Shown here: positions 5,335 to 61,927 of the stretch, piece after piece
Layout: every line of letters begins with the position of its first letter
How positions within the stretch are numbered: the stretch's first letter is position 1
Source of the DNA: Promethearchaeota archaeon
Lineage (GTDB): Archaea > Asgardarchaeota > Lokiarchaeia > Sigyniarchaeales > SOKP01
Direction: 5' to 3'
Assembly (NCBI GenBank): GCA_016839585.1
Contig: JAEOTZ010000042.1
Span: 1-64,000, forward strand
Length of the DNA: 64,000 bases
The notes under the pieces: model-generated
Databases searched by the model: none
What the model was told of the DNA's origin: nothing
Seen by the model: only the letters and a program-made list of their open reading frames with translations
Translations under genes and position numbers: made by a program

Positions 5335-5736
5335 TTATTTCCAAATTACTAAAATACTTCCCGCAATTAAAAATGCAATAAGATAAACGATATATTCTAA
5401 AAGAAATAGTTTCATACCTCTATCGTTAAAATTCGACTGATTTATACCTATAGTTGCGACAAATCCAATCCAAAGCAATAAACTGAGTAATAAAGCGGGA
5501 CCAATCTCTGATAATCCTATTAAGATCATAACAACATCAATTACAAGTACTGTAATAAAACTTAATGGAATCATAATTATTGTTTCTTTTATAATTTTAG
5601 ATTTGGGCTCACCTTCTTTACCAACTAATTTAAGCCAGAGATTTCCGAATGCAGAAGGAAAATACCAAAAAAAATGTATGGCAAAATAAATCAGAGCGAC
5701 AATAGTAACTGCTAACCAATTAATTTCAATAGCCAT
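5335..5736 (-). CDS. DUF1761-like 4-TM membrane protein, copy 1
   Basis: INWLAV...WYFPSAFGNLWLKL...LLWIGFVAT pattern; ATG at 5736. Confidence 0.75.
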   Translation of the reverse strand: MAIEINWLAVTIVALIYFAIHFFWYFPSAFGNLWLKLVGKEGEPKSKIIKETIIMIPLSFITVLVIDVVMILIGLSEIGPALLLSLLLWIGFVATIGINQSNFNDRGMKLFLLEYIVYLIAFLIAGSILVIWK

Positions 5737-5776
5737 TTTAAACCACAATTTATCATTTTAATATATTTTAATAGGA

Positions 5777-5813
5777 ATATAATTAAGCAATATTTATTTC
5801 TTATTTATTTAAA
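5777..5813. promoter_or_regulatory. Conserved divergent promoter region, copy 1
   Basis: ATATAATTAAGC-N2-TATTTATTTCTT-N-TTTATTTAAA is repeated at 6984-7020 (offset 1207). Confidence 0.55.
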
Positions 5814-5843
5814 TTATAACTAAAATACCTAAGTGAACTCTAA

Positions 5844-6317
5844 GTGAAAGATAAATTTAATTTAGTAGAAAAAAAAATCAAGGAATTTTCCCTGTCAAAT
5901 TCTAGAGGCGAAACTAGAAATATCCGTGAATTTGAGGGTGAAAAAAATGTAGTGATTGTGCTATTCAGGAGTAAAAGTTGACCCTATGCTAAGGCTCATT
6001 CAGAAAAATTAGGAAATGATTATGAAAAATTTAGAGAACTTAATGCTGAACTATATGCAATCTTACCAGATGACCTTGAAAATGCGAAAATTTTTGAATC
6101 GAATTTTGCAAAAGAGTATGCTATATTTTATGATGATAAAAAAAAGGTAAATAAAATGTTAAAGCAAGAAGTAAAGCCTTTAAAATTGGGGAGAATGCCA
6201 GCGCTCCTTATTATAGATAAACAAGGGATTATAAGATATGCATATTATAGTGATTCTATGGCTGATATCCCGGAGAATGAAGATTTATTTGAAGTGCTTG
6301 AGAGCTTGAATAATTAA
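5844..6317 (+). CDS. Peroxiredoxin-like (AhpC/TSA/redoxin) putative selenoprotein, copy 1 (157 aa, in-frame TGA 5979-5981, motif UPYA); absent from ORF track
   Basis: GTG start; MKDKFNLVEKKIKEFSLSNSRGETRNIREFEGEKNVVIVLFRSKS-TGA-PYAKAHSEKL...GRMPALLIIDKQGIIRYAYYSDSMADIPENEDLFEVLESLNN*. Thioredoxin-fold homology on both sides of the TGA. Confidence 0.85.
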
Positions 6318-6320
6318 AAC

Positions 6321-6391
6321 GATTTGGTATGAATAAAATAGAATAAATTTTTGAATTTTATTCATAAAAGTTAGCCACACTTGACCAAATC
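6321..6391 (+). ncRNA. Conserved 3' UTR three-way-junction RNA (candidate UGA-recoding element), copy 1
   Basis: P1 GATTTGGT/ACCAAATC; P2 ATGAATAAAAT/ATTTTATTCAT; P3 AAGT/ACTT with loop TAGCCAC. Confidence 0.6.
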
Positions 6392-6530
6392 ATATTTATA
6401 ATTTCATGAAAAGATTTGTCCACATCTTATAAGAGTATTATAAAATAACTAGAGTTCAATTAAGAAAATCTTATATGTTTTCGAACCTTAACACTTAAAA
6501 TTAATTAAAAAAAAAATTGAAATTTTTAAT

Positions 6531-6932
6531 TTATTTCCAGACTACCAAAATACTTCCAGCAACCAAAAATCCAATAAGATAAAAGATATATTCCAATAGA
6601 AACAGTTTTAAACCTCTATCATTAAAATTAGTTTGATTTAGTCCTATCGTGGCTACAAAACCTATCCAAAGTAATAAATTTAGCAACAGTGCAGGACCAA
6701 TCTCGGTTATACCTGCTAAAATCATCACTACATCTATAATTAATACGGTAATGAAACTTGTTGGAATCATTATAATTGTATCTCTTATAATCTTTGATTT
6801 AGGTTCGCTTTCTTTTCCTACTAATTTTAACCATAAATTACCGAATGCGAATGGAAAATACCAAAAAAAATGTATTGCAAAATATATTAATGCGACTACA
6901 ATAACTGCTATCCAATTAATTTCAAAAGCCAT
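6531..6932 (-). CDS. DUF1761-like 4-TM membrane protein, copy 2
   Basis: Close paralog of 5335..5736; ATG at 6932 (GTG at 6938 also possible). Confidence 0.75.
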   Translation of the reverse strand: MAFEINWIAVIVVALIYFAIHFFWYFPFAFGNLWLKLVGKESEPKSKIIRDTIIMIPTSFITVLIIDVVMILAGITEIGPALLLNLLLWIGFVATIGLNQTNFNDRGLKLFLLEYIFYLIGFLVAGSILVVWK

Positions 6933-6983
6933 TTCCACACCAAAAAATAAATTTTTATTTTAAATTTATAATTTTTAAGGATT

Positions 6984-7020
6984 ATATAATTAAGCTGTAT
7001 TTATTTCTTCTTTATTTAAA
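6984..7020. promoter_or_regulatory. Conserved divergent promoter region, copy 2
   Basis: Matches 5777-5813. Confidence 0.55.
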
Positions 7021-7049
7021 ATATAAATAAAAATTAAAATGAAGTCAAA

Positions 7050-7526
7050 ATGAAAGATAAATTTAATTTAGTAGGCACTAAAATCTATGAGTTTAGTTTA
7101 CCAAATTCTAGAGGTGAAACGATCAACATTAGAGATTTCGAAAACAAAAAAAATGTAATAATTGTATTATTTAGAGATATCAATTGACCTTTTTGTCGAT
7201 GGCATGCTGCTAGATTAAGAAGAGACCTTGAAAAATTTGAAAAATTGGATGGATTTTTGTATCCAATTTTAGTTGATAATGAAAAAAATGCTAAAAAAAT
7301 GGAACAGAAATATGCAAAAAAGTACGCTGTCTTTTATGATGAATCAAAAAAAGTTGCTACGCTGTTAAAACAAGAAAAAAGGTGGATTAAACTTGGTCGT
7401 ATGCCGGGATTATTAGTAATTGACAAGAAAGGGATCATTCAATACGCCTATTATGGGAAAAGTATGCATGATATCCCAGAAAACAATGAAATATTGCAAG
7501 TTCTTGAAAAAATAAATAAAAAATAA
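7050..7526 (+). CDS. Peroxiredoxin-like putative selenoprotein, copy 2 (158 aa, in-frame TGA 7185-7187, motif UPFC)
   Basis: ATG 7050; MKDKFNLVGTKIYEFSLPNSRGETINIRDFENKKNVIIVLFRDIN-TGA-PFCRWHAARL... continues in frame into track ORF 7245..7526. Confidence 0.87.
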
Positions 7527-7597
7527 TGATTTGGTAAGAATAAAATAAAAAAAAATGAGATTTTATTCTTTAAAGTTAGCCACACTTTACCAAATCA
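7527..7597 (+). ncRNA. Conserved 3' UTR three-way-junction RNA (candidate UGA-recoding element), copy 2
   Basis: P1 TGATTTGGT/ACCAAATCA; P2 AAGAATAAAAT/ATTTTATTCTT; P3 AAAGT/ACTTT with loop TAGCCAC. Confidence 0.6.
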
Positions 7598-7660
7598 AAT
7601 TACAATTTATAAATATATCAAAAAGAGATATTCTCATAGGAGCATTATAAAATTAAATCC

Positions 7661-59900: not shown

Positions 59901-61927
59901 ATACTTGCTCAGCTGATACACAAACGATTATTAAAGAAAAAATAAAAGAAAATCATTTAAATAGAGTAATCGTTGCTTCTTGTACGCCTAGAACACATGA
60001 ACCATTATTCCAAGCAACTATTAGAGAAGCAGGTTTAAACAAATATCTTTTTGATTTAGCAAATATTAGGGATCAATGCTCCTGGGTACATAAGCATGAA
60101 CCAGAGGAAGCTACAATGAAAGCTAAAGATTTAGTTAGAATGTCTGTTGCTAAAGCTAGAAATTTAGTTCCTTTAAAAGAACAAAAAGTAGAAGTAATTC
60201 ATAAAGGAATAGTTATTGGAGGTGGCGTAGCAGGAATGACTGCTGCTTTAAATTTAGCAGATCAAGGGTATGATATATATCTAATAGAAAAAAATGATAA
60301 ATTGGGGGGTATCGCAAATTCTATTTATCAAACTTTGGAAAACAATGATGTTCAAAAATTAATTGGAAATTTAATAGAAAAAGTAAACAATCATAAATTA
60401 ATTACCGTTTTTCTCGAAGCTAATATTAATTCTGTAAGTGGATATATAGGAAATTTTACCACAGATATAACCTATGGTAAAAAAAAAGAAGAGAAGAAAT
60501 TTGATCATGGGATTATTATTGTAGCTACAGGAGCAAAAGAATATATACCTAAGGATGATGAATTTCTATTTAATCAAGATAAAAGAATTACAACCCAGTC
60601 AAACCTAGAAGAAATTCTTTTTACAAACGAAAAAAAGATAAGAGAATTGAAATCAATTGTAATGATCCAATGTATTGGATCTAGAAACGAAGAACATCCT
60701 TATTGCAGCAGGATGTGCTGCGCAGAAGCTATAAAAAATGCGTTAAAAGCAAAAGAGATTAACCCAGATATCAATATTATAATTTTATTTCGTGATATTA
60801 GGACTTATGGCTTTAAGGAAAAATACTATAATTTAGCCAGAGAAAAAGGAATAATTTTCATCAGGTTTGATGAAAAAAAGCCACCCGAAGTTGTTAAAGA
60901 GGATAATCAATTACAAGTCTTACTAAATAAGCCAGATGTAGGAGAACTTAAAATTAATTCTGATTTAATAGTATTAAGTGCAGGAATTGTACCTCCTGAA
61001 GGAAATTCAGAGTTAGCTAAAATACTAAAAGTCCCTCTTAATGAGGACAATTTCTTTTTAGAAGCTCATGTTAAATTGAGACCATCTGATTTTGCAACAG
61101 ATGGAATCTTTTTATGTGGAACTGCACGAGGAGCGGCCAATATAAGCGAAAGTATAGCTCAAGCGAATTCTGCCGCTGCTAGAGCAATGACAATATTATC
61201 AAAAGAGATTTTGGAAACAGAAGGCATAACTTCCTATGTTAATGAAGATAAATGCATAGGTTGTGGTCGATGTGCTGAAGTTTGTCCTTATAATGCTATT
61301 GAATTGGTTGAGACTACAAAACAAATGGGTTTATATAGTAATGACATAAAAAAAGCTCAAGTAATTAAAGCTGTTTGTAAAGGCTGTGGAACATGCTTCG
61401 CAGAATGTCCTACCTCTGCAATTTCGATGAGTCATTTTGGAAATGCGCAGATTAAGCCAATGATTGAGGAAGCTGTGAAATCTGATGAGATCGGTTGGGA
61501 ACCACGAATAATTGCGTTTCTCTGTAATTGGTGTTCTTATGCTGGCGCTGATTTAGCTGGTGTAAGTCGATATCAGTATCCTCCAAATGTAAGGGTTATA
61601 AGAGTAATGTGCTCGGGAGGTATGTCTAAAAGTTTCATTTTACAAGCATTTTTAGAGGGTGCAGACGGAATATTTATAGCAGGGTGTCATCTAGGGGATT
61701 GCCATTACATTAGTGGAAATGAAAATGCCTATCTCCGCTTGGAAAATCTTAAAGAATTATTAAAAATGATTGGAATTGAAGAAGAAAGAATTCAAATTAA
61801 TCAGATTTCCGCGAGTGAGGGAAAACAATTCTCAGAACTTATAACTGAATTTACAGATAAGATCAAAGCATTAGGAGAATCGAAGATGCCTAAGAAAATA
61901 AGTAAAGCGAAAATTGAATCTAGCTAG
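56981..61927 (+). CDS. hdrA: Large HdrA-like (HdrL-type) flavoprotein: HdrA with GltD-like NAD(P)H module, second HdrA module and fused MvhD
   Basis: LDKTFPTNDCSMC; GRICPRFCE/GSGPAG/GGGDVAMD; QCIGSR twice; GVFICHCG; C-terminal FLCNWCSYAGAD..GCHLGDCHY. Confidence 0.88.
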   Translation: MSEKNKVGSVMIVGAGIGGCQAALDLADSGIKVYLVDKEPSIGGVMAQLDKTFPTNDCSMCILAPKLVAVDRHPNIELITYADVLNLEGEAGNFNATINKKTRYIHEDKCTGCGDCVQECPVQVPDEFNQKLNNRKAIYLQFPQAVPFKVLIDKQGIPPCKDACPAHVNAQGYIALISKKSYQEALNLIRERCPLPSVIGRICPRFCEMVCNRAELDTPINICGLKRFVADYVRDNLEEEIIFLEDQKEEKVAIVGSGPAGLTVAYHLARRGYSVTIFEKEAFAGGMLRLGIPDYRLPPDILESDIEHIKKFGVEIKTNTPIGSDLTFEDLKKQGFKAIFIAIGLHNSRKMDFECKDIEDVIYGVEFLKELNLSRNVPNLKDKIVGVVGGGDVAMDAARSSIRLGAKKVIIIYRRSEQEMPASREEIERAREEGIEFKFLTVPTRDASGKGGKLSEIECVEMKLGEPDESGRRRPISIEGSEFKMKIDTLILSIGQEPDCSLIESASKKKLNINKWGYIESDKISFETNIPGVFAGGEIVEGAGSAIEAIATGNKAAIVIEKYLKGEDISELKETIPDYKVTDIITSAGIQDIESFSCQDRNEFTICLPEERIYNFNEVANGMDEESSIEEALRCLNCGSCCECFECVRACQADAVDHSLTDETISINIGAVILALGSDEYRPKIGNVYGYGEYPNVITSIELERILNASGPFNGEVIRLSDNTHPKKIAFLQCIGSRDKKIGHEYCSSMCCMYTTKEAVIAKEHLSTLEPTIFSMDIRAYGKDFDKYIERAKEDYGVRYIRSRIAAIKEIPESNDLKIRYETEEGKIIEEIFNMVVLSVGLQPNPNTAAFAKKLNIELNEYGFCKTTNFNPIETSRPGIYVCGTFKEPKDIPETVIEASAAAGAVNVLLSDVRNTLIAEKKDYEEIDISGEPPRIGVFICHCGINIGGVVDVPEVVEYASKLPDVVYSERNLYTCSADTQTIIKEKIKENHLNRVIVASCTPRTHEPLFQATIREAGLNKYLFDLANIRDQCSWVHKHEPEEATMKAKDLVRMSVAKARNLVPLKEQKVEVIHKGIVIGGGVAGMTAALNLADQGYDIYLIEKNDKLGGIANSIYQTLENNDVQKLIGNLIEKVNNHKLITVFLEANINSVSGYIGNFTTDITYGKKKEEKKFDHGIIIVATGAKEYIPKDDEFLFNQDKRITTQSNLEEILFTNEKKIRELKSIVMIQCIGSRNEEHPYCSRMCCAEAIKNALKAKEINPDINIIILFRDIRTYGFKEKYYNLAREKGIIFIRFDEKKPPEVVKEDNQLQVLLNKPDVGELKINSDLIVLSAGIVPPEGNSELAKILKVPLNEDNFFLEAHVKLRPSDFATDGIFLCGTARGAANISESIAQANSAAARAMTILSKEILETEGITSYVNEDKCIGCGRCAEVCPYNAIELVETTKQMGLYSNDIKKAQVIKAVCKGCGTCFAECPTSAISMSHFGNAQIKPMIEEAVKSDEIGWEPRIIAFLCNWCSYAGADLAGVSRYQYPPNVRVIRVMCSGGMSKSFILQAFLEGADGIFIAGCHLGDCHYISGNENAYLRLENLKELLKMIGIEEERIQINQISASEGKQFSELITEFTDKIKALGESKMPKKISKAKIESS

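Follow-up and report, generated by a model that had tools for sequence, protein, structure and literature searches.

The first 64,000 nucleotides of contig JAEOTZ010000042.1 of a Promethearchaeota archaeon (GenBank assembly GCA_016839585.1; Lokiarchaeia), hereafter the window, carry two neighbouring genes of a Prx-like family, each with an in-frame UGA codon and each followed directly by an RNA element of ~70 nt that is predicted to fold as a three-way junction. Which signal causes these UGA codons to be read as selenocysteine (Sec), and is the element that signal? The preliminary description of the locus had proposed an undescribed cis-element directing UGA recoding or regulating the mRNAs. 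What stands of this proposal is a structured element of the 3' untranslated region (3' UTR) tied to UGA-containing genes; recoding itself was overstated, as it is deduced by comparison. The reading that we favour, with a probability of about 0.78, is that the element is a family-specific variant of the Sec insertion sequence (SECIS) that lacks a kink-turn and belongs to the Asgard Prx-like selenoproteins (AhpC/TSA fold, with UxxC, UxxU or UxxA active sites). We are led to it by sequence comparison, because these mRNAs need a SECIS, their 3' UTRs have no other conserved structure, the element occupies the position of a SECIS, it shares a stem-loop and a junction with known ones, and it is found only after the UGA-containing members of the family.

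An RNA junction behind two UGA-containing genes

The products of both genes have an AhpC/TSA fold (Pfam AhpC-TSA, E ~5e-20 to 6e-20). In either gene, the single in-frame UGA occupies the position of the first redox-box cysteine, ~340 nt upstream of the element, and a protein search shows that TGA is retained in the orthologues of copy 1. The genes, the elements and their helices (P1, P2 and P3) lie as follows; R1 is a covariance model introduced below.

5844-6317, forward strand: Prx-like selenoprotein gene, copy 1; in-frame UGA at 5979-5981, active site U-P-Y-A, stop codon TAA at 6315-6317
6321-6391, forward strand: three-way-junction element, copy 1; starts 3 nt past the stop codon; fold z-score -4.2; model R1 81.9 bits, E = 1e-15
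6321-6328/6384-6391, forward strand: P1 of element copy 1, GATTTGG(T) with (A)CCAAATC
6329-6339/6355-6365, forward strand: P2 of element copy 1; 9-bp core 6331-6339/6355-6363, 15-nt loop 6340-6354
6368-6371/6379-6382, forward strand: P3 of element copy 1; loop UAGCCAC at 6372-6378
7050-7526, forward strand: Prx-like selenoprotein gene, copy 2; in-frame UGA at 7185-7187, active site U-P-F-C, stop codon TAA at 7524-7526
7528-7596, forward strand: three-way-junction element, copy 2; starts 1 nt past the stop codon; fold z-score -3.9; model R1 97.5 bits, E = 4e-19
7528-7535/7589-7596, forward strand: P1 of element copy 2
7536-7546/7560-7570, forward strand: P2 of element copy 2; 9-bp core 7538-7546/7560-7568, 13-nt loop 7547-7559 (A9-UGAG)
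7573-7576/7584-7587, forward strand: P3 of element copy 2; loop UAGCCAC at 7577-7583

In both copies the minimum-free-energy structure is the three-way junction, and none of 200 dinucleotide shuffles folded as well. The preliminary description had placed an element with these three helices 0-3 nt past each stop codon. Position and helices were found again in both copies, and the one correction concerns the end of copy 2, which lies at 7596 and not at 7597. The two elements are 91% identical outside the P2 loop, compared with 65% for the coding sequences and 44% for the next 90 nt, which bears out the earlier remark that the flanking DNA has diverged more. Two further details had been noted correctly: a compensatory change in P2, with AUGA/UCAU in copy 1 and AAGA/UCUU in copy 2, and an invariant 16-mer, AAAGTTAGCCACACTT, that holds the P3 loop UAGCCAC and occurs exactly twice, in the window and also in the whole 3.45-Mb genome. 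The P2 loops are both A-rich and end in ...UUGA in copy 1 and in ...AUGAG in copy 2, the latter loop reading AAAAAAAAAUGAG. The model signal is specific to one strand, with 82-98 bits on the forward strand and 18-25 bits on the reverse strand.

Distribution and covariation in Asgard genomes

The search for Prx-like orthologues covered 60 related genomes, and two covariance models of the element were used. Model R1, built from 26 element copies, was run on the window's own genome and these 60 relatives; the broader model R2 was run on 151 genomes across the whole Asgard phylum. UGA-containing Prx-like orthologues are present in 38 of the 60 relatives, and nearly all of their 3' flanks bear the element. 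The only R1 matches in the window's own genome are the two copies described above. The relatives yielded 25 further strong hits (27 with the window's two), all directly after UGA-containing Prx-like genes, which had been found independently by the protein search. R2 returned 31 strong hits in 27 of the 151 genomes, all located 0-16 nt after a UGA-containing gene of the same family, and the positive genomes include three further families outside the window's class. One weak match of each model was set aside: that of R1 in genome G028, contig C34 (E = 0.008), was taken as probable chance, and inspection of that of R2 in G142, contig C164 (E = 9.5e-4), showed no element.

Across ~60 orthologous loci, the element starts 0-30 nt past the stop codon, and this spacing is fixed in more than 50 genomes of several Asgard classes. 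UxxU forms of the family, which have two Sec residues, also bear the element. Divergent versions that the models missed keep the layout with changed helix sequences, some of them GC-rich. Two non-Sec paralogues, in which M-D-L-F-C replaces U-x-x-C (Asp for Sec), are not followed by the element, and one of them sits immediately downstream of a Sec paralogue that has it. A covariance-model scan asking whether hits lie 3' of UGA-containing genes had been suggested as a check on the proposal, and its outcome agrees with it: strong hits were found only after UGA-containing genes of the family. In less AT-rich relatives, an oligo-T tract follows 15-25 nt past the element, which would place the element inside the transcript.

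A homologous element also lies 3' of the Prx-like gene (C1:1118298-1118774) in a relative whose genome is a single 6.0-Mb contig (G055), and a further genome, G050, likewise has both the gene and the element. About 2 kb from this intact gene, at G055:C1:1115700-1116400 (L059), a C-terminal gene fragment is followed by a 5'-truncated element consisting of half of P2, P3 and the 3' strand of P1 (P1'). The fragment and the truncated element look like a decayed duplicate.

The structure is supported by covariation. Folding of 18 diverse copies with RNAalifold on a MAFFT alignment, another of the suggested checks, predicted P1, P2 and P3, with double changes that keep pairing in 17 of 18 pairs. Among 52 distinct copies aligned by the model, pairing holds in 96.9% of cells, and double changes occur in 16 of the 20 pairs. 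Doubly changed cells number 64, compared with 9 +/- 2.5 in shuffles, and none of 500 shuffles reached the observed value; when the 3' partners were slid as a control, pairing was only 34-57%. The 52-copy alignment was fitted to the model and thus favours the structure, and the independent MAFFT and RNAalifold result agrees with it.

The alignment also defines the conserved parts. P1 is a closing stem of 7-8 bp with the nearly invariant sequence AUUUGG/CCAAAU. P2 has a 9-bp core, present in both window copies and across the alignment, with compensatory changes in all nine pairs, and it is usually extended by 2-3 pairs drawn from J12 and J23 to 11-12 bp. Its A-rich loop of 11-17 nt usually ends in (A/G)UGA-N, GA being found at positions -3 and -2 in 44 of 52 copies. 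P3 is a mini-hairpin of 4-5 bp with the loop UAGCCA(C/A/U), the first six positions of which are kept in 49 of 52 copies.

These data bear directly on the notion that the element has nothing to do with the upstream gene and is instead a hairpin that terminates transcription, a dispersed repeat, the end of a mobile element, or a small RNA gene in its own right. Its stable inverted-repeat structure and its intergenic position between convergent genes would be in keeping with such an origin. However, the genome has only two copies, both of them after Prx-like genes, and the distance to the stop codon is fixed in all those genomes and classes. Moreover, three helices covary, the P3 loop is invariant, the signal is strand-specific, and archaeal terminators are oligo-T tracts, which in the relatives lie downstream of the element. 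Copy number, fixed position, strand specificity and covariation effectively exclude the terminator, repeat and small-RNA readings.

A probable SECIS without a kink-turn

Asgard archaea possess a known SECIS, the lokiSECIS, a eukaryotic-like (eSECIS-like) type I element in the main texts of Mariotti et al. 2016 (PMC4989117) and Huang et al. 2024 (PMC11227280). In the window's genome, every other selenoprotein gene that we examined has a canonical lokiSECIS just past its stop codon: four VhuD genes, a hydrogenase-linked gene, small genes on contigs C31 and C60, and a second Prx-like family on C24. The two selD genes bear its type II form. The canonical layout, AUGA, a 9-bp stem, an 11-nt A-rich loop ending in (A)G (e.g. 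AAAAAAAUGAG), then GA or AA, agrees with the published description as given in the text of Mariotti et al. 2016 (PMC4989117). All of these elements, both type II selD elements included, are embedded in a P1-P2-P3 three-way junction: P1 is followed by a few nucleotides with AUGA and by P2, then come the 3' GA, 2-4 nt, the P3 hairpin, often capped by GCAA, GCGA or UGC, and P1'. The sites are the following.

C90:33576, canonical lokiSECIS
C47:151046, canonical lokiSECIS
C79:46909, reverse strand, canonical lokiSECIS
C45:36480, canonical lokiSECIS
C49:18945, canonical lokiSECIS
C59:33919, reverse strand, canonical lokiSECIS
C60:22053, canonical lokiSECIS
C31:25965, canonical lokiSECIS
C24, ~1730, canonical lokiSECIS
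C5:27623-27700, canonical lokiSECIS
C5:28960-29040, canonical lokiSECIS

The Prx-like element resembles these canonical elements in several respects. Both follow the stop codon of a selenoprotein gene at a distance of no more than ~30 nt, in the 3' UTR, both have a helix of 9 bp, and in this genome both are built on the same P1-P2-P3 junction with the helices in the same order. The A-rich apical loops are broadly alike, with ~11-13 nt and (A)G at the end in the canonical elements and in copy 2, but with 15 nt and ...UUGA at the end in copy 1. The loop of copy 2, A9-UGAG, has only two A's more than the canonical A7-UGAG of the same genome. In contrast, the quartet AUGA...GA (or AA) of the lokiSECIS is missing from the Prx-like element, in which N-N-G-A pairs with U-C-N-N to form a continuous helix; its loops reach up to 17 nt in other genera, whereas the lokiSECIS criterion is an 11-nt loop; and it alone has the family-specific, nearly invariant P1 (AUUUGG/CCAAAU) and P3 loop UAGCCA. 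The common junction layout, 9-bp stem and A-rich ...UGAG loop mark it as a derivative of a known kind, and it probably derives from the canonical Lokiarchaeal SECIS or shares an ancestor with it. The proteins are not new either: that of copy 2 is identical to Lokiarchaeia_GCA_016839585_U_3, an entry of the Prx-like selenoprotein set of Huang et al. 2024 (PMC11227280), and these proteins are thus already listed as Asgard selenoproteins. For these reasons we do not retain the earlier suggestion of a new system.

The second Prx-like family is unrelated to the first. Its gene in this genome (FFRGNWUSHC, C24:1255-1452) has a canonical lokiSECIS with AUGA, 9 bp, an 11-nt loop and GA, and the family also has a two-Sec form, GTWUTYU, which occurs in tandem in some genomes (in relatives, loci L089-L100). 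FFRGNWUSHC and GTWUTYU are probably PrxL.2 and PrxL.1, respectively, of Mariotti et al. 2016 (PMC4989117). This would explain why AUGA is reported as invariant in the text of that study although the window's family lacks it. The same genome would thus hold both SECIS classes, on two Prx-like families.

As for other known elements, the eukaryotic SECIS (Rfam SECIS_1), a kink-turn bound by SBP2, also lies in the 3' UTR, and its helix, about one turn long, likewise connects a junction with an apical region rich in A; it offers the analogy of a recoding signal that acts at a distance on an upstream UGA. The Prx-like element differs in having neither the GA/GA quartet nor AUGA, in being much shorter, and in having a three-way junction in place of helix 1 and the internal loop. 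The main texts of PMC4989117 and PMC11227280 report no SBP2 in Asgard archaea. The euryarchaeal SECIS of Methanococcus and Methanopyrus is likewise an archaeal 3'-UTR element near the stop codon without a known binding protein. It is described in PMC4989117 as having a GAA_A asymmetric bulge, a short upper stem of three G-C pairs and a GC-rich lower stem of 10 bp; by inspection, none of these is present in either copy or in the family alignment. A search of Rfam returned no family at its gathering threshold over the whole window.

A further structural parallel is the k-junction, a kink-turn whose non-bulged strand bears a third helix (PMC4005666, PMC10573300). Its topology is seen in the canonical lokiSECIS of this genome; in the Prx-like element the three helices are retained, as is the 5' N-N-N-G-A. 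On the bulged strand P1, three nucleotides and GA are present, and the opposing U and C are Watson-Crick paired, with a variable J31. Since the partner of GA is UC, the tandem G.A pairs of a kink-turn cannot form at the junction. The preliminary description had called the element non-canonical, and the covariation of these pairs among the 52 copies corroborates the Watson-Crick pairing. We also considered a kink-turn in which the 5' GA would be partnered by J31 or by the AA of J23 and rejected it because both segments are variable. The canonical elements' three-way junction may be called k-junction-like; the main texts of Mariotti et al. 2016 and Huang et al. 2024 do not mention it, and such a setting may refine the published two-helix model.

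Could another SECIS serve these mRNAs? The preliminary description had regarded a canonical SECIS elsewhere in them as a finding that would tell against its proposal. None was found in the loci, and in particular the 3' flanks of ~35 loci of the family contain no canonical lokiSECIS. One SECIS-like string occurs within the coding sequence of copy 2 (7087-7125, forward strand), ~100 nt upstream of the UGA, with AUGA, 9 bp including one mismatch, a 12-nt loop ending in AG, and GA. It is present in only three of ~33 orthologues and overlaps the conserved LPNSRGE codons, which points to chance plus coding constraint. In some AU-rich copies, including copy 2, P2 can slip into a GA...AA register, which fits the loose SECIS model in the text of Huang et al. 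2024 (PMC11227280; GA_[G/A]A, a stem of 7-15 bp, up to two mismatches); this register is absent in divergent copies and was rejected as the conserved fold. An alternative helix between AUGA-GAUUU of the P2 loop and AAAUC of P1' was rejected too, as it amounts to no more than 5 bp and distant copies do not keep it. Inspection by eye showed no conserved complementarity beyond 4 nt between the P3 loop and J12, the P2 loop, the UGA-codon region or tRNA-Sec. A raw pattern scan for canonical SECIS in four genomes gave mostly unpaired chance matches.

From these comparisons we infer that the element is transcribed with its gene and binds the recoding machinery, and that Sec insertion depends on it. 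As the first ~70 nt of the 3' UTR, it would fold as a three-way junction and, when a ribosome arrives at the UGA, recruit the Sec-specific elongation factor carrying Sec-tRNA(Sec), either directly or via a putative adaptor. The UGA would then be decoded as Sec instead of stop. In such a scheme ordinary G-C and A-U pairs would stand in for the non-Watson-Crick AUGA...GA quartet, and, as there is no kink-turn, what is recognised must be the apical loop, the geometry of the junction or the P3 loop specific to this family.

Several points weigh against a SECIS function. The GA at the base of P2 faces UC, and these positions covary as Watson-Crick pairs (G-C 45, A-U 4 and U-A 1 for the first; A-U 44 and G-C 4 for the second). 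The apical GA...UGA motif is degenerate in the window's own genus and absent from the orthologues of copy 1. No SECIS family appears in Rfam even at E <= 10 over 6280-7660, where only chance-level matches to small nucleolar RNAs or microRNAs were returned. The only negative controls are the two divergent non-Sec paralogues, with 47-53% identity, and because almost all members of the family are Sec forms, it is hard to tell whether the element is linked to the family or to UGA. Finally, we know of no SECIS without a kink-turn or a GAA_A bulge that has been validated in archaea or eukaryotes.

Part of this evidence would also suit a gene-family-specific 3'-UTR element with a role other than recoding. 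It might, for instance, govern mRNA stability or processing, or be bound by a regulator that responds to redox state or to selenium; some other, unrecognised signal would then recode the UGA. The element does track one gene family of which nearly all members are Sec forms, so that UGA and family membership are confounded; it lacks the kink-turn core by which Asgard and eukaryotic SECIS are defined; and an invariant P1 and UAGCCA loop would suit any sequence-specific binder. However, the mRNAs need a SECIS, and the ~35 loci have neither another conserved structure nor a canonical SECIS. Position, junction layout, 9-bp stem and A-rich ...UGAG loop are those of the other SECIS elements of the genome, and the adjacent non-Sec paralogue lacks the element. 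We therefore consider a role other than recoding unlikely, though it is the strongest competitor of the SECIS reading.

It could alternatively be argued that the element does function as a SECIS but has its kink-turn-type core relocated to the upper end of P2, in other words a rearranged eukaryote-like SECIS and not one devoid of a kink-turn. The sequence N-GA-AAA...(A/G)UGA-N, seen in the P2 loop of most members of the family, could form tandem sheared G.A/A.G pairs and thereby a K-loop. K-loops occur in archaeal box C'/D' motifs, where they are bound by L7Ae. In line with this idea, 27 of 52 copies have the 5' N-GA, and 26 have it together with the GA at -3/-2 that 44 possess; the loop of window copy 1 has A-GA...U-GA, and canonical lokiSECIS loops of related genomes often read (U)GAAAAA...(U/C)GAG. 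Yet the 5' GA is missing in most copies of the window's genus, copy 2 (AAAAAAAAAUGAG) among them, and the orthologues of copy 1 in two species lack both halves while keeping the UGA codon. As canonical elements have the loop motif in addition to the basal quartet, this motif is probably an apical feature common to both kinds, not a core that has changed place. A core moved to the top of P2 thus seems very improbable to us.

If the element is indeed a SECIS variant without a kink-turn, one Asgard cell may contain two SECIS classes, namely the k-junction-like lokiSECIS with its kink-turn and the kink-turn-less junction of one Prx-like family, the latter spread over several Asgard classes. We put this forward as a tentative proposal. 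Should both classes be functional, the recoding machinery of Asgard archaea would read not the GA quartet but the apical loop and the junction geometry that both classes share; or else a dedicated second reader would recognise the UAGCCA loop, which would allow separate control of an antioxidant selenoprotein. The element and the canonical ones of the same genomes therefore make a natural comparison of which features the machinery reads. The lokiSECIS has been presented as an evolutionary bridge to the eukaryotic SECIS because of the AUGA...GA kink-turn core that they share. The gene family, the use of Sec in Lokiarchaeia and the lokiSECIS are already known. Three features appear to be undescribed in the main texts of Mariotti et al. 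2016 and Huang et al. 2024: the Watson-Crick pairs replacing the GA quartet in the Prx-like junction element, the invariant UAGCCA loop, and conservation across several Asgard classes beside canonical elements. There is also a practical consequence, in that pattern-based SECIS finders requiring GA_[G/A]A would miss the Prx-like genes or match them in the wrong, slipped register.

Sec machinery and the surrounding genes

The genome encodes a tRNA-Sec candidate, SepSecS, two Sec-type selD genes, a SelB-like factor and a PSTK-like kinase gene. Aragorn found no tRNA-Sec, and the candidate comes from Rfam RF01852 only. Part of the machinery is clustered at C86:58379-63929.

C86:58379-59680, reverse strand: SepSecS
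C86:59756-59872, reverse strand: tRNA with a UCA anticodon and an inserted stretch in the T-arm region (Rfam RF01852, 34.6 bits, below cut-off)
C86:63021-63929, forward strand: SelB-like factor

In the window, each Prx-like gene and its element belong to a tandemly duplicated unit (5335-6391 and 6531-7596) that also includes a DUF1761 gene.

5335-5748, reverse strand: DUF1761 membrane-protein gene, divergent from Prx-like copy 1 and part of the duplicated two-gene unit
6531-6938, reverse strand: DUF1761 membrane-protein gene of the second unit, its 3' end facing element copy 1

Orthologues of copy 1 and copy 2 are found separately in other species of the genus, which indicates that the duplication is old. 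The resolving cysteine has been lost in copy 1 (U-P-Y-A) and kept in copy 2 (U-P-F-C). About 55 nt past the end of either element, at 6440-6455 and 7640-7655, a short block of sequence, (A/G)GAG(T/C)ATTATAAAAT, is conserved in otherwise diverged DNA; it could be a terminator, a processing signal or a TATA-like box.

Towards the other end of the window, an MvhD/FlpD domain without a UGA (61508-61876, forward strand) lies within an open frame of ~1648 codons, which may encode a large HdrA-MvhD-type fusion. A second FlpD gene is found just past the window's end (C26:64903-65271, reverse strand).

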